Positions 1 through 17,521 of a stretch of 64,000 nt of DNA are shown here, in pieces. The translations under genes and the position numbers were made by a program. How positions within the stretch are numbered: position 1 is the first letter of the stretch; the number at the start of each line of letters is the position of its first letter. The notes beneath the pieces were generated by a model that was not told where the DNA came from, searched no databases, and saw nothing but the letters and a program-made list of their open reading frames with translations. Source of the DNA: a virus (Duplodnaviria > Heunggongvirae > Uroviricota > Caudoviricetes); the IMG/VR virus record IMGVR_UViG_2609459822_000013, positions 1-64,000 of that record. One strand, written 5' to 3'.

Positions 1-231
1 TTATGTATTATCTTTGGCTGACGTTAAACCAATCTGATCAAAGAACTGCATTACGTCCTGATAGCGGTACATAACGCCACGACCGTTACCAAGTACATCA
101 ACCGGGTCGGGGAACGGAGTTCCGTTCCGTTCCCATTTTTTACGCCATAAATAAAATGTTCCCCTGCTAATTCCACCAAGCATCCGGCAGATGGCAGGGC
201 GACTAAGAAGGATTGTCCCTGTTTTATCCAT
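1..231 (-). CDS. AlpA/Xis-family small DNA-binding protein (probable excisionase/regulator)
   Basis: 76 aa ORF; AlpA-like pattern (LSRPAICRMLGGISRGTFYLW...FP.P); sits at the edge next to an expected integrase outside the window. Confidence 0.55.
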   Translation of the reverse strand: MDKTGTILLSRPAICRMLGGISRGTFYLWRKKWERNGTPFPDPVDVLGNGRGVMYRYQDVMQFFDQIGLTSAKDNT

Positions 232-878
232 TATTTACCTCCCGTGTATTCAACGTGTCCGATACATCCGTCGATAATAGCTTGCGCCATGTTGCGATAA
301 TCGCATGAAAATTCGTTGTCGCGGTTAAAATTAATTTCTTTTGCCGCATCTTCACCAATCACCTTAGTAGCCAGCGCAAACGCAATTTCCGCCAGTGCTT
401 TTTCTTTCGGGTCAATGTGAATGCGGTACGAGTATTGTTTCCATGCAATTGGTGTTTCAATACCTGTTTCTAATTTACTGTGAGCAATAGACCACTTATC
501 GCCCAGGTAGAAAAACTTAACGACATCAATCACTATATCGCTTCTTGATCCAATGCAATCAAGCCACACTCCGCACGGCGGCTTTTCTCCTGCCTTCCAT
601 TCTGTAACTTCCGGTTTATCGCAATCATGCCGCTCATCTTCGATTAATTCATCAATGATTTCACTTTCTTTATTCATGCCGTCATCATCTATATTTTTAT
701 ATTCTTCAAAAACACATGAAGCCGCCATAACTGAATAAGTGCCGCCAGTATCAGCGCGAACACCCACAAGGAAAGATGATCCATATTGGTATTCGTTGCG
801 GTATGTGGCAACCTCAAAAGAAGGGTAGTCCGGGTCTACACGATGGCGAATTACGCCAATTGCTTTAAGTTTATTCAT
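231..878 (-). CDS. hypothetical phage protein
   Basis: 215 aa ORF, stop/start overlap with flanking genes in the same operon. Confidence 0.5.
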   Translation of the reverse strand: MNKLKAIGVIRHRVDPDYPSFEVATYRNEYQYGSSFLVGVRADTGGTYSVMAASCVFEEYKNIDDDGMNKESEIIDELIEDERHDCDKPEVTEWKAGEKPPCGVWLDCIGSRSDIVIDVVKFFYLGDKWSIAHSKLETGIETPIAWKQYSYRIHIDPKEKALAEIAFALATKVIGEDAAKEINFNRDNEFSCDYRNMAQAIIDGCIGHVEYTGGK

Positions 879-893
879 TTTGCCTATCCTCAG

Positions 894-1055
894 TTACGCC
901 ACCGTTACATTGTCAACCTTAATAAAATATTCAGGGTGGTTTTCTATTTCGTGCTGAAAGTGCGCGTGACACAATCGCCACTCTCGCGCCTGGTTGTGAA
1001 AATAAAAAACGTATTCGCCATCAATCTTATACAAAATTCCGGTAGGTTTAGCCAT
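894..1055 (-). CDS. small hypothetical protein (~53 aa)
   Basis: short ORF filling the gap between neighbouring reverse-strand genes; below the ORF-track size cutoff. Confidence 0.3.
   Translation of the reverse strand: MAKPTGILYKIDGEYVFYFHNQAREWRLCHAHFQHEIENHPEYFIKVDNVTVA
1026..1040 (+). repeat. degenerate motif copy CTTATACAAAATTCC
   Basis: 12-mer CTTATACAAAAT identical to 37979-37990; GG replaced by TC. Confidence 0.3.
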
Positions 1056-1069
1056 ATAATAACGCGCCA

Positions 1070-1501
1070 TTATTGCCCCCAGCGTTTTATGAATTCCTCA
1101 TTTAATTTCGTATCACCCGACCATTGAACATCATGCTCCGCACCGAACGAGTAAATCAATTCGATTAGTTCGCTGAATTCTGATTTACTCATTCGACTTG
1201 TAGACGTTCCCAATACAACGAAGCCTGATTTATCCAGGTTAGGGACTACGCCATATTTCTTAAGTCCGGCAGTGAATACCGCCTTCCAGTCTTCCGGCGA
1301 CAGCTTTTTCCCGTACCAATTAACCTGATCGCTAACGTCTGTCAGCAGCGCCCAAAGTAACGCGTTTTGACTCAATGAGCGGGTTTTCTCCTGGATGGTA
1401 ATTACCAGCGGGCTTTTGCTATCAGGCTGGATCTCCCTTATCTGCCTGATAGCATTTTCTTTTACGGCGTCGTTTACTATTTCAAATCTAATTTGCCGCA
1501 T
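1070..1501 (-). CDS. ninB: NinB (Orf) recombination protein
   Basis: 143 aa; recalled lambda NinB shares motifs (VTIQE..RSL.QN..LWA...DVS.QV.W.G..L....WK.VFTA.LK...VVPNL...GFVV.G.STSRM...EF.EL.ELI..FG). Confidence 0.75.
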   Translation of the reverse strand: MRQIRFEIVNDAVKENAIRQIREIQPDSKSPLVITIQEKTRSLSQNALLWALLTDVSDQVNWYGKKLSPEDWKAVFTAGLKKYGVVPNLDKSGFVVLGTSTSRMSKSEFSELIELIYSFGAEHDVQWSGDTKLNEEFIKRWGQ

Positions 1502-1715
1502 TATTTCTTTTTGCCTTATTTTTTGCTTTGTATTCCTGCCAACTTTCCCAGCGCGCTTTTATAATTGCTTTAAGGCTTATCAATCTTGAAGAAGTCATAA
1601 AAGTGCCTTTTAAATATTTCATATCAACCGTTACAAGCTTATCAAAATCATTGCCGCGCATGTATTCCGCAATTGTGCTTAAATCCTCCACGGTCAATTC
1701 TAAATCCTTGTTCAT
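1488..1715 (-). CDS. hypothetical protein
   Basis: 75 aa ORF, overlaps ninB start, same operon. Confidence 0.4.
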   Translation of the reverse strand: MNKDLELTVEDLSTIAEYMRGNDFDKLVTVDMKYLKGTFMTSSRLISLKAIIKARWESWQEYKAKNKAKRNNAAN

Positions 1716-1724
1716 AATTCCTCC

Positions 1725-1931
1725 TTACACAATCCGCATTGTGTTTCTTAATTCCCCACGCAGCGCTCGTAATGCATCGCGCATTGGCACAAAAACCCGG
1801 TTAAATTTTACGTGTTTATACTTCCGCATCAGTGGCGGTGTATAAACCATTGCGTCGTATACTTCCCACGGATAATAAACACGCGTATTGTCAACAAACG
1901 TTTCAACTGAATAGAATATTACCCGTCTCAT
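1725..1931 (-). CDS. hypothetical protein
   Basis: 68 aa ORF, translationally coupled to upstream gene. Confidence 0.4.
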   Translation of the reverse strand: MRRVIFYSVETFVDNTRVYYPWEVYDAMVYTPPLMRKYKHVKFNRVFVPMRDALRALRGELRNTMRIV

Positions 1932-2518
1932 AATTCCAACCCCGTTTCACTGTTAAGTTTTTCGATTTCAAATACTGGTTTATCCGGTAGTAGACCTTTA
2001 TTTTTCCGGCATTCATTCAGGCGGCTATCAAAGTCAAACGCCAGATCATTAGCGTGACCGAATCGCCCAGGTTTAAACAGTGAGTAAAAGTTAACCCCGT
2101 GCCTATTTGGATCAACGCAAAGCGTTTCATCAATCACCATTAGGCGCAGAGTACGAGAAAGATAATTCCACGGTATTCCCGTTTCAGCGCTAATGTCGCG
2201 CATACGCTTTTTGACGCTGTAGTTACCAAATAACGACGCGACACGCTCACGACGTTCAGCGTATAACTGTTTAATACGATAACCCAGCAGACGGCGGCGG
2301 CGTCCAAAACATGTATACACGCGCTCGACGATACCGTTTTTTATTAAGTGTTTAATTGTCTCAGGCAGTAACCCGTCTTTGTCATATCCAGCCAATAACC
2401 CCGTTTTATTGCGTAACTGGTGCATTGTTGCGATGCCATCAAGTTCAAGGATATTGATAATTTTTGTTTCAAGTTCAGTGCTCATTTTTAGCCTCGTTTT
2501 AAACGCGATAACAGCCAC
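1928..2518 (-). CDS. hypothetical protein (196 aa), replication-module associated
   Basis: ORF directly downstream of the helicase gene in the same operon. Confidence 0.45.
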   Translation of the reverse strand: MAVIAFKTRLKMSTELETKIINILELDGIATMHQLRNKTGLLAGYDKDGLLPETIKHLIKNGIVERVYTCFGRRRRLLGYRIKQLYAERRERVASLFGNYSVKKRMRDISAETGIPWNYLSRTLRLMVIDETLCVDPNRHGVNFYSLFKPGRFGHANDLAFDFDSRLNECRKNKGLLPDKPVFEIEKLNSETGLEL

Positions 2519-2561
2519 CAGAAAGCGGTAAACTTTCCGGCAAGCTGTTTACTAATATTGA

Positions 2562-3971
2562 TTAAAAAGATGCGTTATTCTGATTGTTTCGTTGGTTGAA
2601 TCGGTTTGTACGATGATTCATGGACTGAATACATGCAGACGCTGCGCGGGCCTGGTCACAAGGGAGGATATTGCCGTTGTCATCAAACCGCTGGTAAACA
2701 GTGCCACTTTTCCCGTGACGGTTTTTAGATACAATTATTTCCATATATTCGCGTGCTACAGACTGTTCATCGTAGTAACCATCGCGGTACACCATGATGA
2801 TCCTGTCAGCGTCTTGCTCAAGGTTCCCGGAATCGCGAAGATCTGAATTGTTAGGGCGCTTATTCGGTCGTTCCTCAACGCGGCGTGACAGTTGGGCCAG
2901 CGCCAACACTGGTACGCGCAATTCTTTCGCCATCATCTTCAACGACCACGACAATTGCCCTACAGCGAGATCGTGACGTTCGGCCTTAGCCAGCTTCATT
3001 AACCCGATGTAGTCAATCATTACCATACCCAAGTTGGGGTGTTCCTGTTTCATCCGTTCCGTGGTGGCGCGTATTTCCTCAACCGTTAACTGCGACGCGT
3101 CAACAATCCACACATCAAGATTGGCAAGTGCGCTCATACCCTGGCCAACATGCGCCCACCCCTCATCATCAAGTTTTACCGGATTGCGCAGGCAGTCAGT
3201 TGATAAATTACCAGCGCCAGCGATAGCACGTTCAGTCATCTGATCGAGTGACATTTCAAGCGTAAACAGCAAAACGCCTACCCGCTGACCTTCGCCGCCA
3301 GGGTAAGGGCGTTCGGCAGCCTCGCGGGCAATTGCAAGCGCCAACGCAGATTTACCAGACCCAGGACGTCCGGCGAGAAGCACCAGATCAGTAGCGTTAA
3401 TGCCGCCTAACATTTCGTCGAGTGGGTCAATCCCTGTTTTGATGTTGTCAGAGTTCACGCCACACTCCATGCGTTTACTTAGCACTTCCGTGTATTCCTG
3501 GACAGCATCGCGCAACAGCACCGGGATAATCTGATCTTTTGTTACCTTTAATTTTGAATACCGGGAATCAAAATCTTTCATCGTCTCTTTGACGACCTCA
3601 AGTGTCCCAGTTTCCAGTTTGTAGCGCATATCGTCGATGAGTTCCAACATCTGCCGCCGCTGGTGCTCTTCACGTAGTAGCTGTGCATATCCCTTCAGGT
3701 TGGCAGCAGAAGGGCACGATCGCGCCGTTTGCATTAGCGGTACAAAGTTTTCATTACCAATCTCATCACCAACCAGTAACGCGTCGATAAGATTTCTGTT
3801 TCTGGCTTGCGCCCGGATAATTTCAAAAGCCCGCTTATATAGCGGAATAGTGAATACTTCAGGATCGAGCGTAGCAAGAACGTCTTGCGCGTTAGGTGTA
3901 AGCCCGCCTAACAGGAGTCCGCCTATCACAGCAGACTCTCGTTCTTGTCGCAGTGAGTTAACAGAATCCAT
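2562..3971 (-). CDS. DnaB-family replicative DNA helicase (P22 gene 12-like)
   Basis: 469 aa; Walker A LAGRPGSGKSALALAIA, DnaB C-terminal motifs (LAQLSR..E.R...R.PNNSDLRDSGNLEQDADRI). Confidence 0.85.
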   Translation of the reverse strand: MDSVNSLRQERESAVIGGLLLGGLTPNAQDVLATLDPEVFTIPLYKRAFEIIRAQARNRNLIDALLVGDEIGNENFVPLMQTARSCPSAANLKGYAQLLREEHQRRQMLELIDDMRYKLETGTLEVVKETMKDFDSRYSKLKVTKDQIIPVLLRDAVQEYTEVLSKRMECGVNSDNIKTGIDPLDEMLGGINATDLVLLAGRPGSGKSALALAIAREAAERPYPGGEGQRVGVLLFTLEMSLDQMTERAIAGAGNLSTDCLRNPVKLDDEGWAHVGQGMSALANLDVWIVDASQLTVEEIRATTERMKQEHPNLGMVMIDYIGLMKLAKAERHDLAVGQLSWSLKMMAKELRVPVLALAQLSRRVEERPNKRPNNSDLRDSGNLEQDADRIIMVYRDGYYDEQSVAREYMEIIVSKNRHGKSGTVYQRFDDNGNILPCDQARAASACIQSMNHRTNRFNQRNNQNNASF

Positions 3972-3987
3972 TATGGCATTACCTCCG

Positions 3988-4003
3988 GTTTACAAAATGG
4001 AAT
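3988..4003 (+). repeat. dispersed motif copy GTTTACAAAATGGAAT
   Basis: exact 16-mer; overlaps the last codons of the phosphoesterase gene, just upstream of the helicase RBS. Confidence 0.6.
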
Positions 4004-5108
4004 ATTCAGGGTAATAAACAAAGCGCCCGATTTCCCCGTGATCAGGACTGTAAATTATTCCCGCCGTCAGACGCCGCGACCGCCAGCCGCCATTCGTTGA
4101 ATAAGCGTCTTTGCCCGCTAACGTGCCGTGATACTCAACAACGCCTAACGATGATTCAATCAACCGTTGGTGGTGCCAGTGCCCGCAATGAGCATAAACC
4201 GCCGCAGACTTACCGAAATCTTCCCGCCAGTCAGAGACGCAGGCAGACAACAAATTTTCTGGTTTTTTGATGGTGTGTCCGTGGTGGTAAGCAAGGAATG
4301 TTTTGCCGTACTGTGTGTGGTGTACGATAGCAGGTGACACGTCAATCGTTACGCGCGGTTCATCTTCGTAAAAAGCCGCCAGCGCAGCACGTAGCCAAAT
4401 CATCCCCGACTGATCGTGATTACCTGATAATACCTGGATTTCGATTTCTTTGTGGTTTAACAACATCTTTCCTACAGCACGGCGGACTGACCGGATCGCC
4501 ACATAAACAAGTTTTGCGTAGCGTGAATCGCAATCAAGTACGTGATTGCTTGATGGCGTCACTGGCAACAGCCCATCAGTGTGAAGAACATCCCCACCGA
4601 GAAGCAATACAGCTTTTTCAGACATCGGCGCTGCGCCTACCGCGTAGTCAAAGAAATCATTTAGCACGCGTTCAGCGATCCCGGTGTCGTAGCTCTCACC
4701 GCATTCAGCTTTATGAGCAAGCGCCCCGATATGCAGATCGAATACCGGATAAAGGGCCAGGCTTTTTTGGAAATCAATTTCCGGCACTGGCACGGCCTCC
4801 GCGCGTGGCATGTCTTCCGTGAAAGCATCGCAAGCCGCTTGCATTAGCCTTTCCATTTCATCGCGATCACGGGCTGTTTTAATCCAGCGCATAATCACAT
4901 TGCCATCCTTATCGACGAGCAATGACTCACCATTGACGCCAAAGCCCGGCGCGCGACGCGTGGATATTAAACCGCGTTTCGCCAACCGTGCGCCCAGGCG
5001 TTCGACGTTGCGTTTTGCCATTCCATATTCTTCTGCTATTTGCTTGTAAGTTTTCCCCTTGTTGTACTCGGCGATCAGTTCCTCATCGCTGATCTTTCTT
5101 TGTGACAT
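3990..5108 (-). CDS. N-terminal HTH fused to calcineurin-like metallophosphoesterase
   Basis: 372 aa; HTH YKQIAEEYGMAKRNVERLGARLAKRG; phosphoesterase motifs GGDVLHTDG, SGNHDQSG, HHGH, GHWHH. Confidence 0.6.
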   Translation of the reverse strand: MSQRKISDEELIAEYNKGKTYKQIAEEYGMAKRNVERLGARLAKRGLISTRRAPGFGVNGESLLVDKDGNVIMRWIKTARDRDEMERLMQAACDAFTEDMPRAEAVPVPEIDFQKSLALYPVFDLHIGALAHKAECGESYDTGIAERVLNDFFDYAVGAAPMSEKAVLLLGGDVLHTDGLLPVTPSSNHVLDCDSRYAKLVYVAIRSVRRAVGKMLLNHKEIEIQVLSGNHDQSGMIWLRAALAAFYEDEPRVTIDVSPAIVHHTQYGKTFLAYHHGHTIKKPENLLSACVSDWREDFGKSAAVYAHCGHWHHQRLIESSLGVVEYHGTLAGKDAYSTNGGWRSRRLTAGIIYSPDHGEIGRFVYYPEYSIL

Positions 5109-5285
5109 AACGTTATTACCCCCGGTTCGCGGAATGAGTATTTATTCATAAATAACTAATTTTTATTAACATGGATTTCACGGTGTCAAAAAATGCCAGT
5201 AGGGTTAATCAACAACTTATGCAAATTGAAATAACCACTTAATGAATAACTAATCGTATACATTACGGTTTACAATTTGTATACA

Positions 5286-6341
5286 TTAGGATATAGCACA
5301 ACGGAAAAACTTGCACCCCAAATAATCTTCAATGCGTTTTTGTCTTATCGCATCGCTTTTTACTTGCCGTTTGTGATGTGACTCATCAATTTCTACAGCA
5401 ACGTTATTCACAGGATCGTAGCCATCAATAAAATACTTATTGCCAGCAACATCAACAGGATATTGCCTTATTAATTTAACTCCTTTTAGTTTTTCATACA
5501 TAGTTAAGCCAGCATGTTCATAACGCTTCCTAATCATATTTTTACAATTATCTCTCATTTCTGATAATTTCGAGTCGCACTCCTTTTTTATTTCTTCAAT
5601 TACATTTTTATCGCTTTTTAATTCAATAAAGTTTTCTATGTCGTTATAATTCCCGCATTCAAAATTATTATTAAGACCTTTATTTTCACCCCATGCATGA
5701 TACTTTTCTGCCATCTTATCGCTAATATATCTTTCATACCCATAATTTGTTTTAACTATAAAATATTCAATATTTAAATCAATGGTAAACTCATCATTAT
5801 TGAGGTGTTCAGTTAAAAACGCATCTGGATCTGCAATATCGCTTGAATGGAACAACCTTACCCATAGTTTTTCTATTGATACTCCGCGAGTGACGAACAA
5901 CCATTTTTTGTACTTTTCAGCATCTTCTTTTGACACATACACAGAACATCGCCCAGGAGTATCACTCGTTTCAACATAATTGTTACACCATAAAATATAA
6001 TTATAAGCATAAGGACTATCTTTTTTGGTGTTATTTGAATATTTATTAAAGATATCTTGCAAGTCAACTAATCCACAAGATTCAATAACTGGCTTAACCC
6101 ATTTTTCATTATATTCATAATGTCTATATTTACCAGGTGTAACGAATCTAATAAACGTTATGGGTGTGATATACACATCATCACCATCAACAATAAAATC
6201 CTTGTATTCCTCAAATCCGTAAAGATCAGAGTATTTAACAAATGATTTAAGTCTATCAATTTCAAGTTCAGAAACCAGATTATTAACAGACAGTAATTGC
6301 GTGTCCTTACAATTGAGTTTCATATGATAAGTAGCAATCAT
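5286..6341 (-). CDS. AT-rich accessory protein with C-terminal restriction-endonuclease-like (Vsr/DUF559-type) domain
   Basis: 351 aa from ATG with perfect AAGGAGG RBS; strongly AT-rich codon usage; C-terminus GNKYFIDGYD...VAVEIDESHHK...DAIRQKRIEDYLGCKFFR matches the Vsr/DUF559 pattern. Confidence 0.55.
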   Translation of the reverse strand: MIATYHMKLNCKDTQLLSVNNLVSELEIDRLKSFVKYSDLYGFEEYKDFIVDGDDVYITPITFIRFVTPGKYRHYEYNEKWVKPVIESCGLVDLQDIFNKYSNNTKKDSPYAYNYILWCNNYVETSDTPGRCSVYVSKEDAEKYKKWLFVTRGVSIEKLWVRLFHSSDIADPDAFLTEHLNNDEFTIDLNIEYFIVKTNYGYERYISDKMAEKYHAWGENKGLNNNFECGNYNDIENFIELKSDKNVIEEIKKECDSKLSEMRDNCKNMIRKRYEHAGLTMYEKLKGVKLIRQYPVDVAGNKYFIDGYDPVNNVAVEIDESHHKRQVKSDAIRQKRIEDYLGCKFFRCAIS

Positions 6342-6492
6342 ATATACCTCCTTTATTAATTTTCTATATAACGCCTCAGACGAGCTACAACGCAAAAATC
6401 CCACCGCGTAACCCGTTTACAGGTTGCAGTGTCTTATTGCGCTAGAGGCGCTATCAGGTGGCTAATTTTCGATTTACAGACTGGTAGGTAGG

Positions 6493-6726: not shown

Positions 6727-7773
6727 TCAAAGAACGCCAGCGCGCGTATCACGTAGCGTTTTTGGTTTAAGCAGAAAATCAAGTGTCGCAGTGAAGCCAT
6801 TGCCAAAGTAAAAATCTGAAGCCGTGTTTTTGAACGTTTCGAAGTAGGCGACAAAGCCGTTAATGCTTTTGTCTTTCAGGTAGTCAGTGAACGCATAGAT
6901 CTTGCGTTCAAGATCCCGATCCAGTTCGGCAGGTGGTAACAGGCCGTCAAACGTGCTGTTAAATGCTTCCACCACGTCGGCAGCGTTTACAGTAGCTGAT
7001 AGCTTGCGCCATTGTTCAGCATCAGCCAAATACCCATCAAACCTAGTTACCCGGCAAATGTTGATAGGCTTAGGTACTCCATCACGGCTACGCCATTGGG
7101 TTAAAGCCCACTCAATTACTAACGTGATCTCATTCTCCGTATACGCTTTACATGTTTTTGTTTCTGTCAGTAGTTCTACGAATGGCTTAGCATCACGACA
7201 TTTGCATCCTGCCTTGTCGTTGTAGAAGGCAAGGCAACGCAATGCCGCTTCGTTTACGCCATCCTGATTGACCATTTTTTGTTCATTTTCGACAATACAC
7301 GAAGTGTATATATCTTTTTCTCTTTCTTTTTCTACTTCTAATTCATGACCCTTTCCTGACCCGGTCATGACCCTATCATGACCTTTTTGTGTTGGATTGA
7401 TTAACTTTTCTAATTTTAATTGTTCCTTCGCTGTGTTTATGGCGGCCCTGTAAGCGCTTTTAGAAGTCATTGATTGGTCCAGCCTTTTCAATAACTTTAA
7501 ACAAGTTATGTGGCCTTGAGAACATTCAAACAAACCAATTTCGATGAAGTATTTCATCATTTCTTCTATACGTTTTTCAGTAGATCCGACGTTTCGCGCA
7601 ATTATTCTTGCGTCATGTCGTAGGTCAAAAGTTAGATTGTGCTGATCTACGTCATAAGTTATTAGTTCTAGGCAATACCAATAAAGCCCGTACCCTTCCA
7701 GGCCATAATCTAACAAAACGTTTTGAAGTTTTTCATCGCGGTTCGCATCGCTGTCATGCTTAAACCACTTCAT
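6727..7773 (-). CDS. phage replication initiation protein (DUF4373-type N-terminus)
   Basis: 348 aa; N-terminus MKWFKHDSDANRDEKLQNVLLDYGLEGYGLYWYCLELI characteristic of phage replisome organizers; GGAGGG RBS. Confidence 0.7.
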   Translation of the reverse strand: MKWFKHDSDANRDEKLQNVLLDYGLEGYGLYWYCLELITYDVDQHNLTFDLRHDARIIARNVGSTEKRIEEMMKYFIEIGLFECSQGHITCLKLLKRLDQSMTSKSAYRAAINTAKEQLKLEKLINPTQKGHDRVMTGSGKGHELEVEKEREKDIYTSCIVENEQKMVNQDGVNEAALRCLAFYNDKAGCKCRDAKPFVELLTETKTCKAYTENEITLVIEWALTQWRSRDGVPKPINICRVTRFDGYLADAEQWRKLSATVNAADVVEAFNSTFDGLLPPAELDRDLERKIYAFTDYLKDKSINGFVAYFETFKNTASDFYFGNGFTATLDFLLKPKTLRDTRAGVL

Positions 7774-7776: not shown

Positions 7777-8034
7777 TCATCCCTCCGGCAACATCACTAC
7801 ATAGACATCACTGAATGCATCAAGACGACAAACAAATCCTTTATCCATTAACGCGGCGAAGGCATCATGTACCGTATGAACAGGAAGTTCACACATTGCG
7901 GCTACTTCTTTGCGTGATGCATCATGTACCCGTCCTTTGTTATCTGCCTTTTCAGCCAGAGCCATTAAGACAAGTTTTTGAATCGGGCTGTTAAGTTTTA
8001 CGTTCCATACTTCATTCATCATGTGCATACTCAT
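7777..8034 (-). CDS. early HTH regulator in Cro position (85 aa)
   Basis: divergent from the CI-like gene; start chosen at ATG with AGGAGA RBS; HTH-like segment SRKEVAAMCELPVHTVHDAFAALMDKG. Confidence 0.5.
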   Translation of the reverse strand: MSMHMMNEVWNVKLNSPIQKLVLMALAEKADNKGRVHDASRKEVAAMCELPVHTVHDAFAALMDKGFVCRLDAFSDVYVVMLPEG

Positions 8035-8253
8035 CGTGTTTTCTCCTATGGTTAGAGTGAACGCGCGGGCGGGCATCCCATTAGCATTAGATAGCAGTGA
8101 CTGACCGCTCAACAGATCCCGCCGTTGCGTGATATTTGTTTTTCGCTTCGCAGCGACACCGGATTTTTAAAGAGCTTAAGGTAAGTGCCTTTTTGTGCCT
8201 TCCGTTATCTTTTTCCTTGCGTCTTTGCAAGTATGGCCTTACCTTGTCTGCAA

Positions 8254-8269
8254 GTTTACAAAATGGAAT
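8254..8269 (+). repeat. dispersed motif copy GTTTACAAAATGGAAT (in CI/Cro intergenic region)
   Basis: 16/16 identical to the copy at 3988-4003. Confidence 0.6.
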
Positions 8270-8339: not shown

Positions 8340-8987
8340 ATGAAAACAAAATGGTATGACTTAGCAAAGCAGCTCATGCGGGCGCAGGGCATGAGCCAGG
8401 ATTCACTAGCGGATCGCATGGGGATAACTAAAGGCGGTCTGTCACACTGGCTGAACGGTCGCCGCGAGCCAAATCTTGAAGATATTGCGCGGATTATGCG
8501 AGAGCTTGGTCGTCGGCAGTTCACTGTTACACATGATGGTATGGTCATTGATGATTCTGTTTCTAATACACTTCAGGCCGTGCCGCCGCGTGATTTAGGT
8601 AGTTACCCGGTTATTGACTGGAAGGACACAGTAAACAATATGGATGACGCAAGGCGTTCAGCATTACGACACGTTACGACTAGCGTTATTTGTTCAGATG
8701 ACAGTTACTGGCTGGTTGCCAAAGGTGAATCAATGAACGCGCCGCAGGGGTTGAGCATCCCGGCGGGGACGATGATACTTGTGGACCCGCACGCGCCAGC
8801 TATTGACGGCAAACTGGTTATAGCCCAGCTTGAGGAAGGGCAGATACCGACGTTTAAACAGTTGATTATTGATGGAGGTCAAAGGCTTTTACGTTCGCTC
8901 AATCCGCTGTATCCGCCAATCCCTATGAATCCAGAATCAAAAATTATAGGCGTGGTGGTTGATGCGAAGATCGTAAACCTGCCATAA
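8340..8987 (+). CDS. CI-type phage repressor (HTH + S24 LexA-like peptidase)
   Basis: 215 aa; N-terminal HTH (QDSLADRMGITKGGLSHWLNGRREP); C-terminal S24 motifs (AKGESMNAP...GTMILVDP). Confidence 0.85.
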   Translation: MKTKWYDLAKQLMRAQGMSQDSLADRMGITKGGLSHWLNGRREPNLEDIARIMRELGRRQFTVTHDGMVIDDSVSNTLQAVPPRDLGSYPVIDWKDTVNNMDDARRSALRHVTTSVICSDDSYWLVAKGESMNAPQGLSIPAGTMILVDPHAPAIDGKLVIAQLEEGQIPTFKQLIIDGGQRLLRSLNPLYPPIPMNPESKIIGVVVDAKIVNLP

Positions 8988-8992
8988 ACATG

Positions 8993-9018
8993 AGCCGCCG
9001 GATGGCGGCTTTTCTTTG
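8993..9018 (+). terminator. Rho-independent terminator after repressor gene
   Basis: hairpin AGCCGCCGGATGGCGGCT followed by T-run. Confidence 0.6.
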
Positions 9019-9096
9019 CCTAAAGAACACCAAAACGTAAACAGAAAACGTTACTTATTGTTTAAATATCAATAGCATATAAAATATTTTAAAAAA

Positions 9097-9110
9097 GTAT
9101 ACAAAATGGA
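9097..9110 (+). repeat. dispersed motif copy GTATACAAAATGGA abutting pL-like -35
   Basis: core ACAAAATGGA; immediately upstream of TTGACT. Confidence 0.55.
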
Positions 9111-9139
9111 TTGACTCGATGTTTTACGGGGCGTATATT
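9111..9139 (+). promoter_or_regulatory. candidate sigma70 promoter (pL-like): TTGACT-N17-TATATT
   Basis: near-consensus -35/-10 with 17 bp spacer downstream of repressor terminator and upstream of the nut-like site. Confidence 0.4.
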
Positions 9140-9393
9140 GCGAGTCAAAGGAAGGGCGCAGGTAACAAAAGCAACTTCCTGGCACTTTAAAAATCAGGCT
9201 TAACACCTTGTCAACCGTGGAGTAACTCCCCGATGGGGGACCGAAAGCGGCACTGATAACAAGGCGCATGGGGTGTTTAAAGCGTTACATCCCCCACGAA
9301 ACCGCACGCAAGGCGACGAGTCAGCTTGCTTGGAGTGAGCAAGGTCACGCCGGGAACGGCGATGATTGCGGGATTAGTTGCAAGATGTTAAGC

Positions 9394-9487: not shown

Positions 9488-9778
9488 ATGAGCGTTACAA
9501 TTATATATGGTAAATGTGATAGCAAAATGAATGCCAGGGAACGCAGAAGGATAAAAAGAGAAAACGAAAGAAAATCATCACCTGCAATCAATAAAACAGA
9601 CAATGTGGATAAAGCTATTCGATTTGCAAACGAGGAAAGATGCAAACCGAATGGCATTAAAGAGCATCGCAAAGGTGCGGCAAAATGGTATGCGGAAAAC
9701 GAAAGCGGCAATTACTACCACGCAACACAACCGCGTAGTCTAGGGGAAAAACCCCTGGATAAAGTACGCTACAGATAA
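9488..9778 (+). CDS. N-type transcription antiterminator (P22 gp24-like)
   Basis: 96 aa; N-terminus MSVTIIYGKCDSKMNARERRRIKRENERK resembles recalled P22 gene 24 N-terminus and carries an arginine-rich motif; ACGGAG RBS. Confidence 0.65.
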   Translation: MSVTIIYGKCDSKMNARERRRIKRENERKSSPAINKTDNVDKAIRFANEERCKPNGIKEHRKGAAKWYAENESGNYYHATQPRSLGEKPLDKVRYR

Positions 9779-9927: not shown

Positions 9928-10569
9928 GTGAAAACAGAGTTACATAAAAAGCTATGGGCGATTCAGCAAACGCTGAACGCGCCGAAAAATCAGCGTAATA
10001 ATTTTGGTGGATATAATTACAGGTCGGCGGAGGATATTTTAGAGGCGGTTAAACCACTGCTTCAAAATATCACGCTGACTGTTAGTGATGAAATTGTCCT
10101 GATCGGCAATCGCTATTATGTGAAAGCAACGGCGACGCTAAGCGACGGTGAAGACGTAATAGCGGTAACTGCTTATGCCAGGGAGGAAGAAAGCAAGAAG
10201 GGTATGGACGCCAGCCAGCTAACAGGAGCAACATCAAGTTACGCGCGTAAATATGCTTTGAACGGTTTATTCTGTATAGATGATGCTCGCGATCCTGATA
10301 CTGATGCTTACGCGAAGCAGACAGGCCAGCAGCCGCGACAACAGAAAAACCCACCAAAACAACAACCGCAGCAGAAGAAAGCGCCGCCAAATCCTGATGA
10401 AGTGTTAGCACGTTTCTGTGATGCAGCAGCGAAAGCGCAGGACGCTAACAAGCTGCGTGAAATATTTGGCAAATGCTGGAAATTACTACCGGAAGGATCG
10501 GAGCATCGAATCAAGGCAAAAGATGTTTATGACATCCGGGTAGCAGAGCTTAACGGGGAGATGGGTTAA
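9928..10569 (+). CDS. erf: Erf-family single-strand annealing recombinase
   Basis: 213 aa; ERF signature GGYNYRSAEDILEAVKPLL; GTG start with GGGAGA RBS. Confidence 0.8.
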   Translation: MKTELHKKLWAIQQTLNAPKNQRNNFGGYNYRSAEDILEAVKPLLQNITLTVSDEIVLIGNRYYVKATATLSDGEDVIAVTAYAREEESKKGMDASQLTGATSSYARKYALNGLFCIDDARDPDTDAYAKQTGQQPRQQKNPPKQQPQQKKAPPNPDEVLARFCDAAAKAQDANKLREIFGKCWKLLPEGSEHRIKAKDVYDIRVAELNGEMG

Positions 10570-10988
10570 TGAGTTTAAATTCAATCACGCTGGGCGGGAA
10601 TATCGGTAATGATATGGAGGTTCGCTACACACAAAACGGGAAAGCGATTGGTAGTTTTCCGTTAGCTGTAACGAATGGCTACGGCGATAATAAGCGGACA
10701 ATGTGGGTCACTTGCCTTGTATTTGGTGAGCGTGCGGAAAAATTAGCGCCACATATCCGCAAGGGTGGAAAAATAGTGGTAAACGGTCGCTTGGATGTTC
10801 GGCAATATGACCGGAACGACGGCACGAAGGGAACGGCGGTAGAAGTGGCGGTTAACGAATTCGAATTTATGAACGTTAACCAACAGGGCCAGCAGCAAGG
10901 CCAGCAGCAGAAAGCGCCACCGCCGCAGCAGAATAACAACGGGAATAATCCGCCTCCGATGGACTTCGACGACGATATTCCTTTTTAG
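10569..10988 (+). CDS. ssb: single-stranded DNA-binding protein
   Basis: 139 aa; OB-fold SSB N-terminus, Q/G-rich linker, acidic C-terminal tail DFDDDIPF. Confidence 0.9.
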   Translation: MSLNSITLGGNIGNDMEVRYTQNGKAIGSFPLAVTNGYGDNKRTMWVTCLVFGERAEKLAPHIRKGGKIVVNGRLDVRQYDRNDGTKGTAVEVAVNEFEFMNVNQQGQQQGQQQKAPPPQQNNNGNNPPPMDFDDDIPF

Positions 10989-11657: not shown

Positions 11658-11664
11658 GGCAATC

Positions 11665-12560: not shown

Positions 12561-12571
12561 GGGTAAATATT

Positions 12572-13192
12572 ATGAACAATATCAAAACGGCTTATTCACT
12601 CGGCAGCGAAGGCATGTTAATTACTCGCTACACAGAGGACGCGAGCTTTCACGAAGTGGTAACTAAGGATTATCACGAAGTTTTAAAAGATATGGAAGCA
12701 GGAGTGTATGACAGTGACTTAAATCTGGCGCTACAGATTGTTGATATTATGATGGATGCATCAATCCGCGATTACGTGTCTTTAAGCATGGAAGAAAAAA
12801 CATCGGTAGCGCGTTATGTGTTCTGCCTCACTTTCGTAAGACGCATGGAGGAGGAATTCGGACGCGCACCAGTGCCGGAAGATGTTGATCCGCTCGCGTT
12901 CGGAAGTGCTGTTATTTTCCCGTTGAACAAGGATCGGCTTGGCAGTGTTTCACTGCATTCTATGCGCGCCCTGATGAAAAAGGTCTTTGAGGTTAAGATG
13001 TTGCAGAAATTTATTGAGGAAGGACACGAAGAAGTGAACGTTAAGGCGTTTATTCCGGTGCTTTACGGAAATTTTGTTGGCGATGATATGCGCGCTAATG
13101 AATTAGGCGTACAGGCGGCTATAGCTACGCTTAACGAAGCAATGAAAAGTGCACAGCCTATTCATGAACAGGAAAAACGTGTACTGCATTAA
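12572..13192 (+). CDS. hypothetical protein (206 aa)
   Basis: start at ATG after TAAGGG RBS. Confidence 0.5.
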   Translation: MNNIKTAYSLGSEGMLITRYTEDASFHEVVTKDYHEVLKDMEAGVYDSDLNLALQIVDIMMDASIRDYVSLSMEEKTSVARYVFCLTFVRRMEEEFGRAPVPEDVDPLAFGSAVIFPLNKDRLGSVSLHSMRALMKKVFEVKMLQKFIEEGHEEVNVKAFIPVLYGNFVGDDMRANELGVQAAIATLNEAMKSAQPIHEQEKRVLH

Positions 13193-13291
13193 CAGCGTGA
13201 TTGCGATCACATAAATATACATTTTGTATTGTGATTGCATATCCGTTTTGTAAGCCGAAATCAAAAGGTTTACGGTGCGGAGGAAAACAAG

Positions 13292-13510
13292 ATGGCCCGC
13301 GAATTAATGCTTTATTGTGTTGAGGGTGGCGTAGGTAGTAATGCCTATGTCGCCGGGAAAGGCTATCCAGCCGATGAAGTGCTTTCTAATATGCACTTCC
13401 GGGAAAATGAAAGCCGGGTGTCTGTGTGGAAACGGTGCATTGATGGTATTGAGGTTGTAAGTATCGAACGGTATTTAGGCACGTTTGATTACGGTGTTAT
13501 TGAGGCTTAA
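13292..13510 (+). CDS. hypothetical protein (72 aa)
   Basis: GGAGGA RBS before ATG. Confidence 0.45.
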   Translation: MARELMLYCVEGGVGSNAYVAGKGYPADEVLSNMHFRENESRVSVWKRCIDGIEVVSIERYLGTFDYGVIEA

Positions 13511-13608
13511 TTATGGACGACACATTGTTTTATATGTGCTGTTGCTGGGGTTTTATTGCCTTATGTCTGTTTATCAGGTGGTTTATTGAATACCATATGA
13601 GGTGAGGC

Positions 13609-13803
13609 ATGGAACAGAAAACTGATTATAGAATACCTGATGGCCTAAAATTAGTTGGCATTGGTTTCGGGTGTAGATTTGTATCTGACGCAAAAGGAGC
13701 GATTTATTTAATACGTCTTATTGATGGCGTTCAACATATAAGGAGATTAGGAATTTACATCAAAGCATTCAGAAGAGGTTATTTAAAAACTCATGAAATT
13801 TAA
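13609..13803 (+). CDS. hypothetical protein
   Basis: 64 aa ORF in AT-rich stretch. Confidence 0.35.
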   Translation: MEQKTDYRIPDGLKLVGIGFGCRFVSDAKGAIYLIRLIDGVQHIRRLGIYIKAFRRGYLKTHEI

Positions 13804-13996
13804 ACATTACATGGAATGGAAAATTCCAGAAGCAGCAACAAAGGCAGCGCCAGGAAATGTTTCTGGCGTTTATTTTTATATGGATGGCAAATGGTATTTC
13901 GGCAGCAGGCCGGATCGCTACTATCAAGAAATATGCAAGCCTCACGTATGGGATATTAAAGAGCGCGTGAAAGGCGGGGTAATTGAGGACGTTTAA
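13793..13996 (+). CDS. hypothetical protein
   Basis: 67 aa ORF. Confidence 0.35.
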   Translation: MKFKHYMEWKIPEAATKAAPGNVSGVYFYMDGKWYFGSRPDRYYQEICKPHVWDIKERVKGGVIEDV

Positions 13997-14029
13997 AATG
14001 ATGCGTGCAATTATTGACTTCATTATTGG

Positions 14030-14224
14030 ATGGTTATTTTGTTCTTTTTCGTATTCTCATGTATAGCTACGGTTTTTATTGGAATTTTATGTGGTGTGTC
14101 GTTTGTTACATGGGAGCCACCAGAAATTCCATCACCTGATGATGCGCTTTATATATTAAGGGTTATTATTGCTGTTAGTGTATTTGTTGGGTTCTTTTTC
14201 GCTGATTCTACTGATGATTTATAA
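14030..14224 (+). CDS. small membrane protein (2 TM)
   Basis: 64 aa, two hydrophobic segments. Confidence 0.35.
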   Translation: MVILFFFVFSCIATVFIGILCGVSFVTWEPPEIPSPDDALYILRVIIAVSVFVGFFFADSTDDL

Positions 14225-14225
14225 A

Positions 14226-14459
14226 ATGGCTTTATTTAACCTGTCAGAGCCGCAATTTAACGCCGTAAAGACTGCCGCCCGCGCCGCGCTTTCGGCCTGC
14301 AAAGCGGAAGTAGAAAAGAACGGCTACAGCGATAAAGCCACGCGGCTGATATTAGATAAGCATTATCGCAAGGTCGCCCCGCTAATCAGTATTGAGCGTT
14401 TTGTGTGGTTGGTGGGGTATCTGAATAACCGCTGGGGAACAGATCAGGATTATTTCTAA
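14226..14459 (+). CDS. hypothetical protein (77 aa)
   Basis: ORF with internal ATG start after stop of upstream gene. Confidence 0.4.
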   Translation: MALFNLSEPQFNAVKTAARAALSACKAEVEKNGYSDKATRLILDKHYRKVAPLISIERFVWLVGYLNNRWGTDQDYF

Positions 14460-14468
14460 GGGGGCGTA

Positions 14469-15008
14469 ATGAAAAATGATTACGGCGGCAGCCATACGCC
14501 GAAAGAAATAAAGGACTTATGGCAAACGCCAAAACCCGTTTTTAGAGGAATGGATCGAGAATTCGAGTTCGTCGCGGATGTGGCGGCAAACAAGGCAAAC
14601 GCATTAATACCGCGATATATAACCGAAGAAATGGACACGCTCCATTATCCGTGGGGAGCGGTGGCGATGCCTGGTGAGTATGTCTGGATGAATCCGCCAT
14701 ATTCTAATCCGGGGCCATTCGTTGATAAAGCGGCGCTTGAACACAGCCGAAATCATATCGGATGCGTAATGTTATTGCCCGCTGACATTTCTGTTAGCTG
14801 GTTTATGAACGGCGTGGAGACGGCAAACGAATGCCGATTAATCACGCGCGGGCGGCTGGCGTTTATCAATGCTGCAACAGGGAAACCAGTAAGCGGGAAC
14901 AATAAGGGGAGCTTGTTCCTGATCTGGCATCCACGATGCAGACATGAATGTATTTTCACGCAGATAACACGTAAAGAGCTATATGCAAGAGGTGCAGAAA
15001 ATGAATAA
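14469..15008 (+). CDS. phage N6-adenine DNA methyltransferase
   Basis: 179 aa; catalytic NPPY motif (VWMNPPYSNPG). Confidence 0.7.
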   Translation: MKNDYGGSHTPKEIKDLWQTPKPVFRGMDREFEFVADVAANKANALIPRYITEEMDTLHYPWGAVAMPGEYVWMNPPYSNPGPFVDKAALEHSRNHIGCVMLLPADISVSWFMNGVETANECRLITRGRLAFINAATGKPVSGNNKGSLFLIWHPRCRHECIFTQITRKELYARGAENE

Positions 15009-15321
15009 AGCGGCTGAATTGCTGAGACTTGCGGCTGAAACTATCGAGGCAAGAGGGGAGCAAAACGGATACGATCGAAAAGAAGAAAAATCAGCGCCAA
15101 AAATAGCGGCTATTTTCAACGCTAAGATGAATGCGAATTTAACCCCACTTGATGTATGGGATCTAATGATTTGCCTCAAGGAAGCGCGTTTAGGGGCTAT
15201 TCTCGCTAATGGAACTGATCCGCTCGACACTCTTATAGACCTTATTGCTTATAACGCGCTTAAGGCCGAACAGATATTAGCGTATCGGGAGGAAGAGCTA
15301 AATGAAGATGGTGGCAATTGA
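15001..15321 (+). CDS. hypothetical protein (106 aa)
   Basis: overlaps methyltransferase stop. Confidence 0.45.
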   Translation: MNKAAELLRLAAETIEARGEQNGYDRKEEKSAPKIAAIFNAKMNANLTPLDVWDLMICLKEARLGAILANGTDPLDTLIDLIAYNALKAEQILAYREEELNEDGGN

Positions 15322-15805
15322 CAGGTTATTAGCCTGCGTTTATGTCGCCGTTTTCGTTATCATCAATCTTATTGTTAACCACTGTGGCACGTGGGTAATT
15401 CCGATCACCACGGTAGCCGCCGTGTGTGTCAATATGATGATTCGTGATTTTCTGTTATATGACGGCGGCCTTAAATGGTCGGCTACAACATGCGCCGCCG
15501 CTGGCGCAATCACGGTGCTGATAAATTACGACGCCGGAATGGTGGCGATCGCGTCATTCGTCGCGGTTGTTTCCGGTGCGCTTATTTCTGGCGGCGTTTA
15601 CCGGGTTTTACCTGGTGATTTCGATTCTAAACGCTGGCCTGCAAATATAGCGTCCGCCATTGGCGATGCGTTAATTTTCCCAACGCTATCGTTTATGGCA
15701 TTCATGCCGGAAATATCAGCTATGCAATTCATCTCAAAAATGGCGGCGGTAACGGTGATCACTATCATCATGCGCCGCTACTTTACGTTCGAGGGTAGGA
15801 AATGA
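15302..15805 (+). CDS. integral membrane protein (167 aa, ~5 TM)
   Basis: multiple hydrophobic helices. Confidence 0.5.
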   Translation: MKMVAIDRLLACVYVAVFVIINLIVNHCGTWVIPITTVAAVCVNMMIRDFLLYDGGLKWSATTCAAAGAITVLINYDAGMVAIASFVAVVSGALISGGVYRVLPGDFDSKRWPANIASAIGDALIFPTLSFMAFMPEISAMQFISKMAAVTVITIIMRRYFTFEGRK

Positions 15806-16565
15806 GTGGGCTTAGAAATTGGGTGGTGTGGTCGCTGTACGACGGCAGCGGATACGCCGTTAAAGATTGGGCCGACGCTGGTTATAAATGCTATTGCTTC
15901 AACTATGATGGCGCTAATCACGGCGATTATGAAGGCGTCAAAATCATTCATCCGAACATTGAGTATATCAACGTATGGATTGACAGCCATTTCCTGGTAA
16001 TGTTCTCCCCTGAATTGTCTGTTTATCCAGATCCTGACATTATCCTGGGCTTTCCTCCGTGCGACGATCTTGCGGTGTCCGGCGCTCGCTGGTTTGCTGA
16101 TAAGCGGAAAAAGATCCTTACTTCCAGCAGAAGGCGGCATACAACGCAAAACTGGTAGAAACGCTTGCTGATATGTACCACGTCCCGTGGATGGTGGAAA
16201 ATCCGGTAGGTGCGCTGTCAACGTTATGGCGCAAACCTGATTTTATCTTCAACCCGTGCGCTTACGGTGGCTACCTGCCTGAAGACGACAAACACCCTGC
16301 TTTCCCTGAATACATAGCTGCCCGCGACGCATACACGAAGAAAACTTGTATCTGGTGCGGGAATGGATTTAAGCAGCCGCTATTCCGGTCTGTACCTATG
16401 CCGGATGAATGGGAAGACAGCAAACAGCACGCGAAGTTAGGAGGAAAGTCGAAACGCACTAAGATGATCCGCTCACTAACGCCGCGCGGCTTTGCCCGTG
16501 CTGTATTCTTGGCTAACGACCGGGCCATCACTCGTACTACGCTTAACCGCATTTTACCGGACTAA
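15802..16565 (+). CDS. putative DNA C5-cytosine methyltransferase, frame interrupted (-1 shift required at 16107-16113)
   Basis: ORF 15802-16158 carries a motif IV-like GFPPCDDLAVSGA; ORF 16173-16565 (open from 16104 in the -1 frame) carries ENV-like MVENP and RSLTPRGFARAV; the two frames join across G_AAA_AAG. Confidence 0.45.
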
Positions 16566-16566
16566 A

Positions 16567-16582
16567 GTTTACAAAATGGCAT
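16567..16582 (+). repeat. dispersed motif copy GTTTACAAAATGGCAT
   Basis: 13-mer GTTTACAAAATGG identical to 3988/8254 copies. Confidence 0.6.
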
Positions 16583-16587
16583 CATTG

Positions 16588-16603
16588 TGTGATGCGGATC
16601 ACA
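16588..16603 (+). promoter_or_regulatory. CRP-consensus-like palindrome TGTGA-TGCGGA-TCACA
   Basis: perfect match to both CRP half-sites with 6 bp spacer; contains GATC. Confidence 0.4.
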
Positions 16604-16634
16604 TAATGGCGCTTTTTGTCTTGTTTGGGGGTAT

Positions 16635-16647
16635 CCATTTTGTATAC
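16635..16647 (-). repeat. dispersed motif copy (reverse) TATACAAAATGGA
   Basis: inverted partner of the 16567 copy, 55 bp away. Confidence 0.55.
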
Positions 16648-16724
16648 TTCAAGCAAACAAAATGCTCTTTAAAAATCCGGCAGCGCTGAAATGCGTAGAA
16701 ATCACCTGAAAAGGAGAGAGCATT

Positions 16725-16901
16725 ATGTCTTTTGATGATTACCAATGGCATGACGACTATGAACGAGAAAGCGTCATGCGTGCAATGTGCAATGTATGCA
16801 GCACGAAGAAAGGAGGCTGTAACGAGTGCAACGAATGCTTAGAACATTGGCTAAGGGCCGGACACGCCGAAAGGCTGAACGAAACAGAGAATCAAAAATA
16901 A
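16725..16901 (+). CDS. small zinc-ribbon protein (58 aa, CxxC...CxxC)
   Basis: AAGGAGAG RBS; four Cys in two CxxC pairs. Confidence 0.45.
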   Translation: MSFDDYQWHDDYERESVMRAMCNVCSTKKGGCNECNECLEHWLRAGHAERLNETENQK

Positions 16902-16915
16902 TCGGGGTGGTTTTT

Positions 16916-17521
16916 ATGCAAAACCCTAAAAAACCCATAAGACGCCGTTGCAAATGCTGCGGCGTTTTTTTTGAGCCTAAATATCACAATCAAACGTGGT
17001 GCAGCGATGAATGTCTGGAAGAACTGAAGTTTGACCAGCTATGCCGCGACCGTGAGAAGGCTATGAAGGCTATGGAGCGGAAGAAACGCCGTGATAGCCA
17101 GAGGGAAGAACGCAACCGGAAGCGTAAACAGTTAAATCCGCGTAGTTATTGGATCAAACAAGTTCAAAATGTATTTAACGCCTATATTCGCGAACGTGAC
17201 GCGCGCTTGCCGTGTATATCTTGCGGGACTTACTACGGTGAGCAATGCGGGTGGGATGCAGGTCATTACAGGACGGTAGCCGCCGCCGGACACCTTCGCT
17301 TCAACGAGGATAATTGCCATAAGCAATGTAGGCACTGCAACCAGACACTAGACGGCAACATCGGAGGGTATCGCCCGGCGCTGATTCGAAAAATTGGCCT
17401 CGCCAGGGTGGTAGCTCTGGAGAACAACAATGATACGCATAAATGGACGATTGCAGAATGTAAGGAGCTAATAAACATCTATCAGGCTAAATTGGACGCC
17501 TTAAGGAGAAAGGCAGCATGA
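16916..17521 (+). CDS. ninG: NinG (Rap) recombination protein
   Basis: 201 aa from internal ATG; Cys/His-rich NinG-like sequence (CKCCG...CISCGTYYG...HYRTVAAAGHLRFNEDNCHKQCRHCN). Confidence 0.75.
   Translation: MQNPKKPIRRRCKCCGVFFEPKYHNQTWCSDECLEELKFDQLCRDREKAMKAMERKKRRDSQREERNRKRKQLNPRSYWIKQVQNVFNAYIRERDARLPCISCGTYYGEQCGWDAGHYRTVAAAGHLRFNEDNCHKQCRHCNQTLDGNIGGYRPALIRKIGLARVVALENNNDTHKWTIAECKELINIYQAKLDALRRKAA

Follow-up and report, generated by a model that had tools for sequence, protein, structure and literature searches.

The early region of an mEp021-like prophage has a family-wide gene order that lies one reversal away from that of P22

RESULTS

An mEp021-like prophage at the ydaM/zntB site

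The DNA analyzed here (the window: 64,000 nucleotides, positions 1 to 64,000 of IMG/VR record IMGVR_UViG_2609459822_000013) carries a near-complete mEp021-like (mEpimmI) prophage of ~54 kb, which lies at the Escherichia coli ydaM/zntB site and spans ~1.3 kb to the left of the window to position 52695. We focused on its early region, which a first-pass annotation had read as rearranged in this prophage by inversion of the segment from ninB to the distal end of the N/erf operon. Complete relatives with exactly the same order exist among the mEp phages and MagusPhagus, which argues against such a rearrangement. According to the description of the mEpimmI group (Negrete-Mendez et al. 2025; PMC11893012), mEp021, mEp010, mEp013, mEp044, mEp515, mEp554 and MagusPhagus are plaque-forming temperate phages; members of the group lysogenise and have one common immunity.

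Megablast of window positions 1-17000 against the phage collection returned eight records: the complete genomes of those seven phages (mEp021, MH706966; mEp010/013/044/515/554, PP180001-5; MagusPhagus, PP925836) and a 1.45-kb mEp021 fragment. Alignments to the six mEp phages, all on the plus strand, take in 78-88% of this interval at 86-88% identity, and MagusPhagus covers part of it. Window position 1 corresponds to mEp021 position 1340, and colinearity with mEp021 extends through ~50.8 kb. The main chain of high-scoring segment pairs is monotonic from window position 1 to 50788, with a few overlapping repeat matches in the tail-fibre gene, and none of the pairs of at least 300 nucleotides lies on the minus strand. 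The best identity to any record in the collections searched is ~91%, making the prophage a distinct member of the group.

A 9-nucleotide att core, TCCAGACAG (52687-52695), common to the ends of the mEp021 record, marks where the prophage ends on the right. Host DNA follows from 52687, with zntB, dbpA, ttcA and the Rac intR gene. mEpimmI phages integrate in the ydaM/abgT/mppA region with a matching integrase, and ydaM/zntB is the site given for the type I integrases of the group (PMC11893012). Here, the att core is followed by zntB-dbpA-ttcA-Rac, and the integrase C-terminus is of the mEp021 type.

Genes and control sites of the early region

At the left edge, the plus strand encodes the 3' end of a tyrosine integrase gene (1-37), the remainder of which lies outside the window. 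Positions 2-37 translate to YVLSLADVKPI and a stop codon, matching the mEp021 C-terminus (which ends in ADYVLSLADVKPISSKNRITS); these last 11 residues confirm the expectation that the left neighbour of the window is an integrase. The gene terminates 8 codons before the mEp021 stop (TCA to TGA), and two IMG/VR contigs have the same short form. It converges, with overlapping 3' ends, on a minus-strand gene (1-231) for an HTH_23/AlpA-like DNA-binding protein (Pfam HTH_23, 2.4e-6; phrog_4745, 2.6e-11), the homologue of mEp021_02, and attP lies at the 5' side of int. The helix-turn-helix (HTH) protein, whose gene closes the leftward operon, is possibly an excisionase or a regulator. The gap between the HTH gene and ninB is filled by two minus-strand hypothetical genes (231-878 and 894-1070). 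Neither has a Pfam or PHROG match, and wherever an mEp-type locus extends that far, both are found there with unchanged position and orientation.

The leftward (replication) arm continues on the minus strand with NinB (1070-1501; Pfam NinB, 1.7e-46; 54% identical to P22 NinB) and, in the position of lambda ren, a MarR-like protein with a weak Ren-like match (1928-2518; phrog_1687, 4e-9; phrog_142, 2.6e-4). Then come a DnaB-type replicative helicase (2562-3971; Pfam DnaB_C, 4.2e-75; 57% identical to P22 gp12) and a DNA repair exonuclease-like protein (3990-5108; phrog_704, 5.1e-135), a gene previously taken for the initiator. A DUF559/PvuRts1I-like endonuclease-domain protein is also encoded within this operon (5286-6404, minus strand). 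The replication initiator itself lies at 6727-7773 (Pfam Lin1244_N; O-like phrog_345/428; C-terminus 31% identical to P22 gp18), and its gene contains, at 7343-7383, three iterons TCATGACCC with 11-nucleotide spacing. In a protein search, the initiator proved to be a mosaic of domains, and deeper relatives of the architecture did not emerge.

The first leftward gene (7777-8112, minus strand) does stand in the Cro position, as had been proposed. Its product is an O-like N-terminal winged-helix domain protein (phrog_4617, 6.6e-22, residues 27-109), whose mEp021 counterpart is annotated as HTH/MarR-like; no Cro homologue was recognised in the family or in the PHROG comparison of window proteins. 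The replication initiator looks split: the product of 7777-8112 matches only the N-terminal winged-helix domain of O-like initiators and resembles the origin-binding domain of an O-type initiator, and that of 6727-7773 carries Lin1244_N and the gp18-like C-terminus.

nutL lies upstream of this gene (8139-8175, minus strand), at the published position between gp14 and gp15. Its boxA (8175-8162) is an exact match to GCTCTTTAAAAATC, and its boxB forms a hairpin (8156-8143). The divergent control region contains a conserved motif, AGTTTACAAAATGGA (8253-8267), which is near-invariant among 25 distinct family sequences. On the plus strand, the CI-type repressor (HTH_3 plus Peptidase_S24; 8340-8987) is 94% identical over 198 amino acids to Rep021, an experimentally tested repressor (PMC11893012), and a terminator hairpin (8992-9011) directly follows its gene. 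A further copy of the motif (9096-9110) adjoins a candidate rightward early promoter, TTGACT-17-TATATT (9111-9139), identified as a consensus match. nutR1 (9182-9245, plus strand; boxA GCACTTTAAAAATC at 9182-9195) is invariant in the family and lies, as published, 5' of the gene for the N-like antiterminator.

That antiterminator (9488-9778, plus strand; phrog_271, 1.1e-12) is 93% identical to mEp021 Gp17. A conserved arginine-rich motif in Gp17 (R17, R19, R20, R24) is one of the criteria of the group (PMC11893012), and all four residues, plus R21, are present in the aligned N-like protein. Experimental support for the nut sites and for Gp17-dependent antitermination in mEp021 is reported in PMC11893012, citing Valencia-Toxqui 2023. 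The rightward arm continues, all on the plus strand, with Erf recombinase (9928-10569; Pfam ERF, 4.7e-42; 53% identical to P22 Erf), SSB (10569-10988; Pfam SSB, 2e-23), Dam methyltransferase (14469-15008; Pfam Dam, 1.9e-51), a nin-region gene in canonical lambdoid relatives, an open reading frame (ORF) in the NinF position (16725-16901; no Pfam match, the NinF name coming solely from the mEp021 annotation), NinG (16916-17521; Pfam NinG, 1.3e-66), RusA (17518-17925; Pfam RusA, 7.8e-15) and the Q antiterminator (18104-18832; Pfam Antiterm, 4.6e-31). Pfam, PHROG and identity matches thus agree with the gene identities and strands assigned earlier to the early region, including a nin region split over both arms (NinB on the minus strand, NinG and RusA on the plus strand).

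Between the gene at 16173-16565 and the NinF-position ORF lies a compact set of control elements. The stop codon of that gene is followed, in this order, by a copy of the motif (16566-16580, plus strand), an intrinsic terminator with hairpin and T-run (16582-16609, plus strand; –18.4 kcal/mol, z = –3.9) that corresponds to mEp021 TERM_4/t4, an inverted motif copy (16634-16648, minus strand; near-invariant in the family) and nutR2 on the plus strand. The nutR2 boxA (16664-16677) is identical to the nutL boxA, and a small boxB hairpin follows (approximately 16683-16696). The first 17 nucleotides of nutR2 and nutL, comprising boxA and the bases directly after it, are identical (GCTCTTTAAAAATCCGG), and a –10-like TATACT within the inverted motif ends 15 nucleotides 5' of the nutR2 boxA. 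nutR2 is the published third nut site, which sets the mEpimmI family apart from lambda (PMC11893012); the window contains all three boxA sequences, at 8162-8175 (minus), 9182-9195 (plus) and 16664-16677 (plus), in the published positions. Literature searches on nutR2 and on inverted lambdoid early regions turned up nothing further.

The order is conserved across the family

To assess conservation, we compared two overlapping sets of loci. The repressor-selected set comprises 45 loci in which the repressor is at least 90% identical (2 phage records and 43 IMG/VR contigs, some of them circularly permuted assemblies with the region in the interior). The NinB-selected set comprises 30 mEp-type and 50 lambdoid-type loci, NinB being at most 56% identical in the latter. 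When 18 window proteins were projected on the repressor-selected loci, the same signed order was seen in each of the 45, as far as the locus extends. Past ninB, all 30 mEp-type NinB loci continue into the HTH gene and the convergent integrase as far as their sequence extends, and in none of them is ninG, rusA or Q found 3' of ninB. The alternative orientation was absent from both sets (0/45 repressor-selected and 0/30 mEp-type NinB loci). The mEp021 and mEp010 annotations give the identical order, with int on the plus strand at the left, as does the MagusPhagus record, which is permuted and reverse-complemented.

The element is present in 35 of the 5426 complete E. coli genomes. Thirty of the 35 have a contiguous native right junction; in the other 5, no single place aligned with as much as 80% of the junction query. 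A re-inverted junction, constructed by joining ninB to nutR2-ninF-ninG, is contiguous in none of the 35. Since cultured phages with independent sequences, as well as closed genomes, show the identical order, and we found no point in favour of it, the idea that the arrangement is an assembly artefact of the source genome can be given almost no weight.

One reversal separates the order from that of lambdoid phages

The annotated map of P22 (BK000583) reads int(–) xis(–) … erf(–) … 24(N)(–) c2(–), then cro(+) 18(+) 12(+) ninB(+) … ninG(+) 23(Q)(+). Using tblastn of window proteins on P22, we located seven homologues in the order erf(–) c2(–) gp18(+) gp12(+) ninB(+) ninG(+) 23(Q)(+). The same seven markers in the window read ninB(–) dnaB(–) rep(–) cI(+) erf(+) ninG(+) Q(+), and reversing the first five P22 markers yields this order exactly. 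Eight markers could be compared with a Chimaeribacter prophage and with several lambdoid contigs from IMG/VR, and there, too, one reversal suffices. The earlier claim of a single reversal, from ninB to the distal end of the N/erf operon, is therefore borne out as a statement about order. Under a naive null of random signed permutations, no more than 29 of 645,120 orders fall within one reversal for seven markers, and no more than 37 of 10.3 million for eight, and hence the lambdoid resemblance is beyond chance. On a circular map, reversing the erf…ninB block is equivalent to reversing everything else, so which block turned cannot be said.

All 50 lambdoid-type NinB loci show the canonical order wherever markers are visible. 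The prophage has functional hallmarks of lambdoid phages (N/nut and Q antitermination, a CI-type repressor) and departs from their canonical order (int-xis-recombination-N-cI, then cro-O-P-nin-Q-late), lying one reversal from P22 and from each of these 50 loci. Outgroup loci in which the repressor is 38% identical (L046-L048) have few genes in common and were uninformative on order. A single-sequence NinB scan of genome_contigs found nothing. An alignment-based scan of the same collection yielded mostly lambda control DNA in unrelated assemblies, together with a few enterobacterial and Aeromonas prophages that are canonical where informative. Six contigs of ~21-48 kb (L054, L055, L058, L060, L061 and L065), from source genomes of Pseudomonas, Oceanobacillus, Neobacillus, Shewanella and a Chromatiales metagenome-assembled genome, have identical positions of cI(–), ninB(+), ninG(+) and Q(+); these look like phage lambda control DNA contaminating public genomes.

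The lambdoid loci also bear on where any ancestral reversal would have ended. Of the 50 canonical lambdoid loci (L122-L171), 21 have a Dam homologue 3' of ninB and co-directional with it, and none has one on the erf side, where homologues of the window genes up to 11283 are located. From dam (14469) through Q (18832), the window follows the canonical nin-region order minus ninB. Because Dam is thus a nin-side gene in these loci and the window genes to 11283 are erf-side, the right end of any such reversal more likely fell between 11283 and 14469 than at 16566-16724; with Dam 42% identical, this is no more than suggestive. The left end can be narrowed down only to the interval between the HTH gene and ninB. 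GC (guanine-cytosine) skew is negative to ~8 kb and positive beyond; we take this profile to follow the coding strand, and therefore it cannot date an inversion.

Neither junction looks like a recent breakpoint

The first-pass annotation placed breakpoints at 880-1060, in the gap between the HTH gene and ninB, and at 16566-16724. The right one is spanned by a single alignment in 42 of 43 family loci. Across the left one, the alignment runs without a break in 27 loci; in another 13 it lacks only a diverged stretch of a 215-amino-acid gene, with spacing and strand kept. Both junctions are thus family-conserved, and the proposed breakpoints do not hold: the interval 16566-16724, with t4 and nutR2, is a conserved regulatory node and contains no strain-unique scar.

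We also searched for repeats that might have mediated inversion. Between 700-1300 and 16400-16950, the best inverted match is 10 nucleotides long, and 17 of 60 shuffles equal it. A 20-nucleotide repeat with 18/20 identity does connect 924-943 and 16895-16914 (0/60 shuffles as good), in direct rather than inverted orientation; one copy is in ORF 894-1070 and the other just 5' of the ninG start, a similar third stretch occurs at 8933-8956, and the match may be a coincidence. No invertase is present in the mEp021 annotation or was found in Pfam scans of 40 window ORFs, which included part of the small ones.

The dispersed motif had been reported at both breakpoints. As a 15-nucleotide sequence, AGTWTACAAAATGGA, it gives 10 matches against 0.39 expected, with copies at 3987, 8253, 9096, 16566, 16634 (minus), 37979, 41435 (minus) and 42967 (minus). 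Those at 16566 and 16634 are genuine, and the one at 1026, within ORF 894-1070, is not: it departs from the motif at 4 or more positions and shows codon-like conservation only. The five early-region copies tested (3987, 8253, 9096, 16566 and 16634) are near-invariant across the family and sit at the heads of transcription units: 5' of nutL, beside the predicted P_R –35, flanking t4 before nutR2 and just 5' of dnaB. The later copies mark the divergent edges of three islands of accessory genes, each on the minus strand, within the tail operon. In reverse orientation the motif holds a –10-like TAWACT, and it may be an operator or promoter element. We rejected it as a recombination site, since its copies head transcription units prophage-wide and the left-junction copy is not real. 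Nor is it established as a complete sigma-70 promoter; of such a promoter it holds only the –10-like TAWACT, in a single orientation, and the 9096 copy faces the opposite way beside the P_R –35.

Three minus-strand accessory genes of the prophage were noted in passing. One (37274-37933) encodes a VasI-like, type VI secretion-associated protein (PF11319, 1.9e-16) and lies in a stretch without mEp021 alignment; the others, at 40937-41439 and 42179-42427, are a ParE-like toxin gene beside a small upstream ORF and a short KilAC antirepressor-domain ORF.

Together, these observations bear on the view that the order reflects a recent, strain-specific inversion, or a programmed invertible segment, running from ~880-1060 to 16566-16724 and mediated by the motif. 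A distance of one reversal from lambda/P22 and the motif copies at 16566 and 16634 speak in its favour. Against it, the order is the same in all relatives examined, whether cultured phages, IMG/VR contigs of the mEp type or the 35 complete genomes, the re-inverted junction is missing from all 35 genomes, and both junctions are conserved. There is no significant inverted repeat between the junctions, and no invertase or resolvase in the mEp021 annotation or the Pfam-scanned window-specific ORFs; the 1026 copy is degenerate and not conserved, and the motif also occupies six other regulatory positions away from either junction. We consider a recent or programmed inversion highly improbable. In particular, the suggestion of an invertible segment finds no flanking inverted repeats, no invertase and a single orientation in all loci examined. 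Nor do the results support the idea that the prophage is defective.

DISCUSSION

We conclude, with a probability of about 0.88, that this early region is the fixed architecture of the mEp021-like (mEpimmI) family of temperate siphoviruses, integrated here at ydaM/zntB in E. coli. The gene order as such is already known, having been in GenBank since 2018 and the family described in 2025. If there was an inversion, it predates diversification of the family and is not recent, strain-specific or reversible.

We infer the promoters and operon extents of the following scheme from the arrangement of genes and control sites. The CI-type repressor gene lies between two divergent early operons. A leftward transcript would run through nutL, the O-like winged-helix gene, the initiator, exonuclease, DnaB, Ren-like and NinB genes, the two hypothetical genes and the AlpA-like HTH gene, ending against the convergent integrase gene beside attP. 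Rightward, transcription would start at the candidate promoter around 9111-9139 and proceed through nutR1 into the genes for the N-like antiterminator, Erf, SSB and accessory proteins including Dam; once antiterminated, it would cross t4 and nutR2, reach ninG, rusA and Q, and go on to the genes for lysis and structure. The layout thereby places N and Q in one co-directional cascade of ~9 kb with several terminators, and replication genes are transcribed away from the late genes. Such a cascade offers a simple reason for a second, downstream nut site.

How might such an order have arisen? One possibility, which we put forward tentatively and think somewhat unlikely, is that a lambdoid-type ancestor underwent one ancient inversion that put N and Q in a single rightward operon. 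nutR2 would then be a compensatory copy of a nutL-type cassette, carrying antitermination across the new junction into nin-Q. This reading of nutR2 is suggested by its first 17 nucleotides, identical to those of nutL, its position just after t4, and the –10-like TATACT 15 nucleotides upstream. If it is true, the extra nut site, seen as a peculiarity in the literature, would be a direct consequence of the rearrangement.

Several points weigh against this picture of the early region and its origin. The promoters are consensus matches only, and identity to lambdoid homologues is only 31-57%. No intermediate forms were found, NinB identities being either at least 94% or at most 56%. Because of these low identities and the missing intermediates, the inversion event can be neither dated nor separated from modular reassembly. 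Finally, the integrase gene is on the plus strand with attP at its 5' side, unlike lambda/P22 (in the annotated P22 map, attP is at the 3' end of a minus-strand integrase gene), and so one reversal cannot yield the whole map: a single inversion leaves a plus-strand integrase converging on the HTH gene unaccounted for. Replacement of the integrase cassette is a plausible explanation, given that four exchangeable integrase types occur in the family (PMC11893012).

It is also conceivable, if doubtful, that no inversion ever took place and that lambdoid-type modules (replication-ninB, N-erf-ssb and dam-nin-Q), each acquired separately, were joined in the present orientation by mosaic recombination. 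The low identity to lambdoid homologues (31-57%) is compatible with this history, as are the non-lambdoid inserts in the left arm (the exonuclease, HNH and DUF559 genes), the mosaic initiator, the variable integrase cassette with its orientation unlike that of lambda, and the structural genes, which are described as non-lambdoid (PMC11893012). On the other hand, order and orientation are kept within each arm, a single reversal fits all 7-8 markers, which is improbable for independent joins, and ninB, dnaB, erf and ninG are similarly diverged (51-57%).

Phages with this order are demonstrably viable. The view of the mEpimmI early region as a single reversal of the lambdoid plan was not found stated in PMC11893012, where the words "inversion" and "invert" are absent. 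That the early region of a "non-lambdoid" family can be described as a one-reversal derivative of the lambdoid plan is the sole mildly new element here; seen in this way, the unusual third nut site and the joint placement of N and Q in an operon have a simple rationale. The case also counsels caution: when a prophage departs from the lambda order, complete relatives should be consulted before it is read as inverted.

The resemblance to invertible segments of the Hin/Gin/Cin/Pin type is superficial and ends with the notion of a segment lying in the "other" orientation. The early region differs in that no flanking inverted repeats or invertase were found, a single orientation is seen, and the segment is ~15.5 kb long with essential genes.

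The likeness to lambda and P22 goes deeper. As in those phages, a CI/S24 repressor lies between divergent early operons, boxA/boxB nut sites serve N-type antitermination, and a Q-type protein is the late regulator; P22 has homologous Erf, gp18 C-terminus, DnaB-type gp12, NinB, NinG and Q at 31-57% identity, with order kept within each arm. The prophage differs in its erf…ninB block, reversed relative to nin-Q-late, in having N in an operon leading to Q, and in replication genes transcribed toward int. It also has a third nut site before nin-Q, no recognised Cro, a convergent integrase with attP 5' of it, and unrelated structural genes. When a lambda tester was co-infected with mEpimmI phages, no viable progeny were obtained (Kameyama 1999, as cited in PMC11893012), and viable hybrids with lambda are not reported there.

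The closest comparison is with the mEpimmI phages themselves. The prophage differs from them in having its own accessory genes (DUF559, 5286-6404; VasI-like, 37274-37933) and another tail-tip region, and its integrase C-terminus is 8 residues shorter. It is otherwise colinear with them genome-wide at 81-91% nucleotide identity, with the same att region and the same signed gene order; its repressor and N-like protein are 94% and 93% identical to Rep021 and Gp17 of mEp021, and the positions of nutL, nutR1 and nutR2 match.

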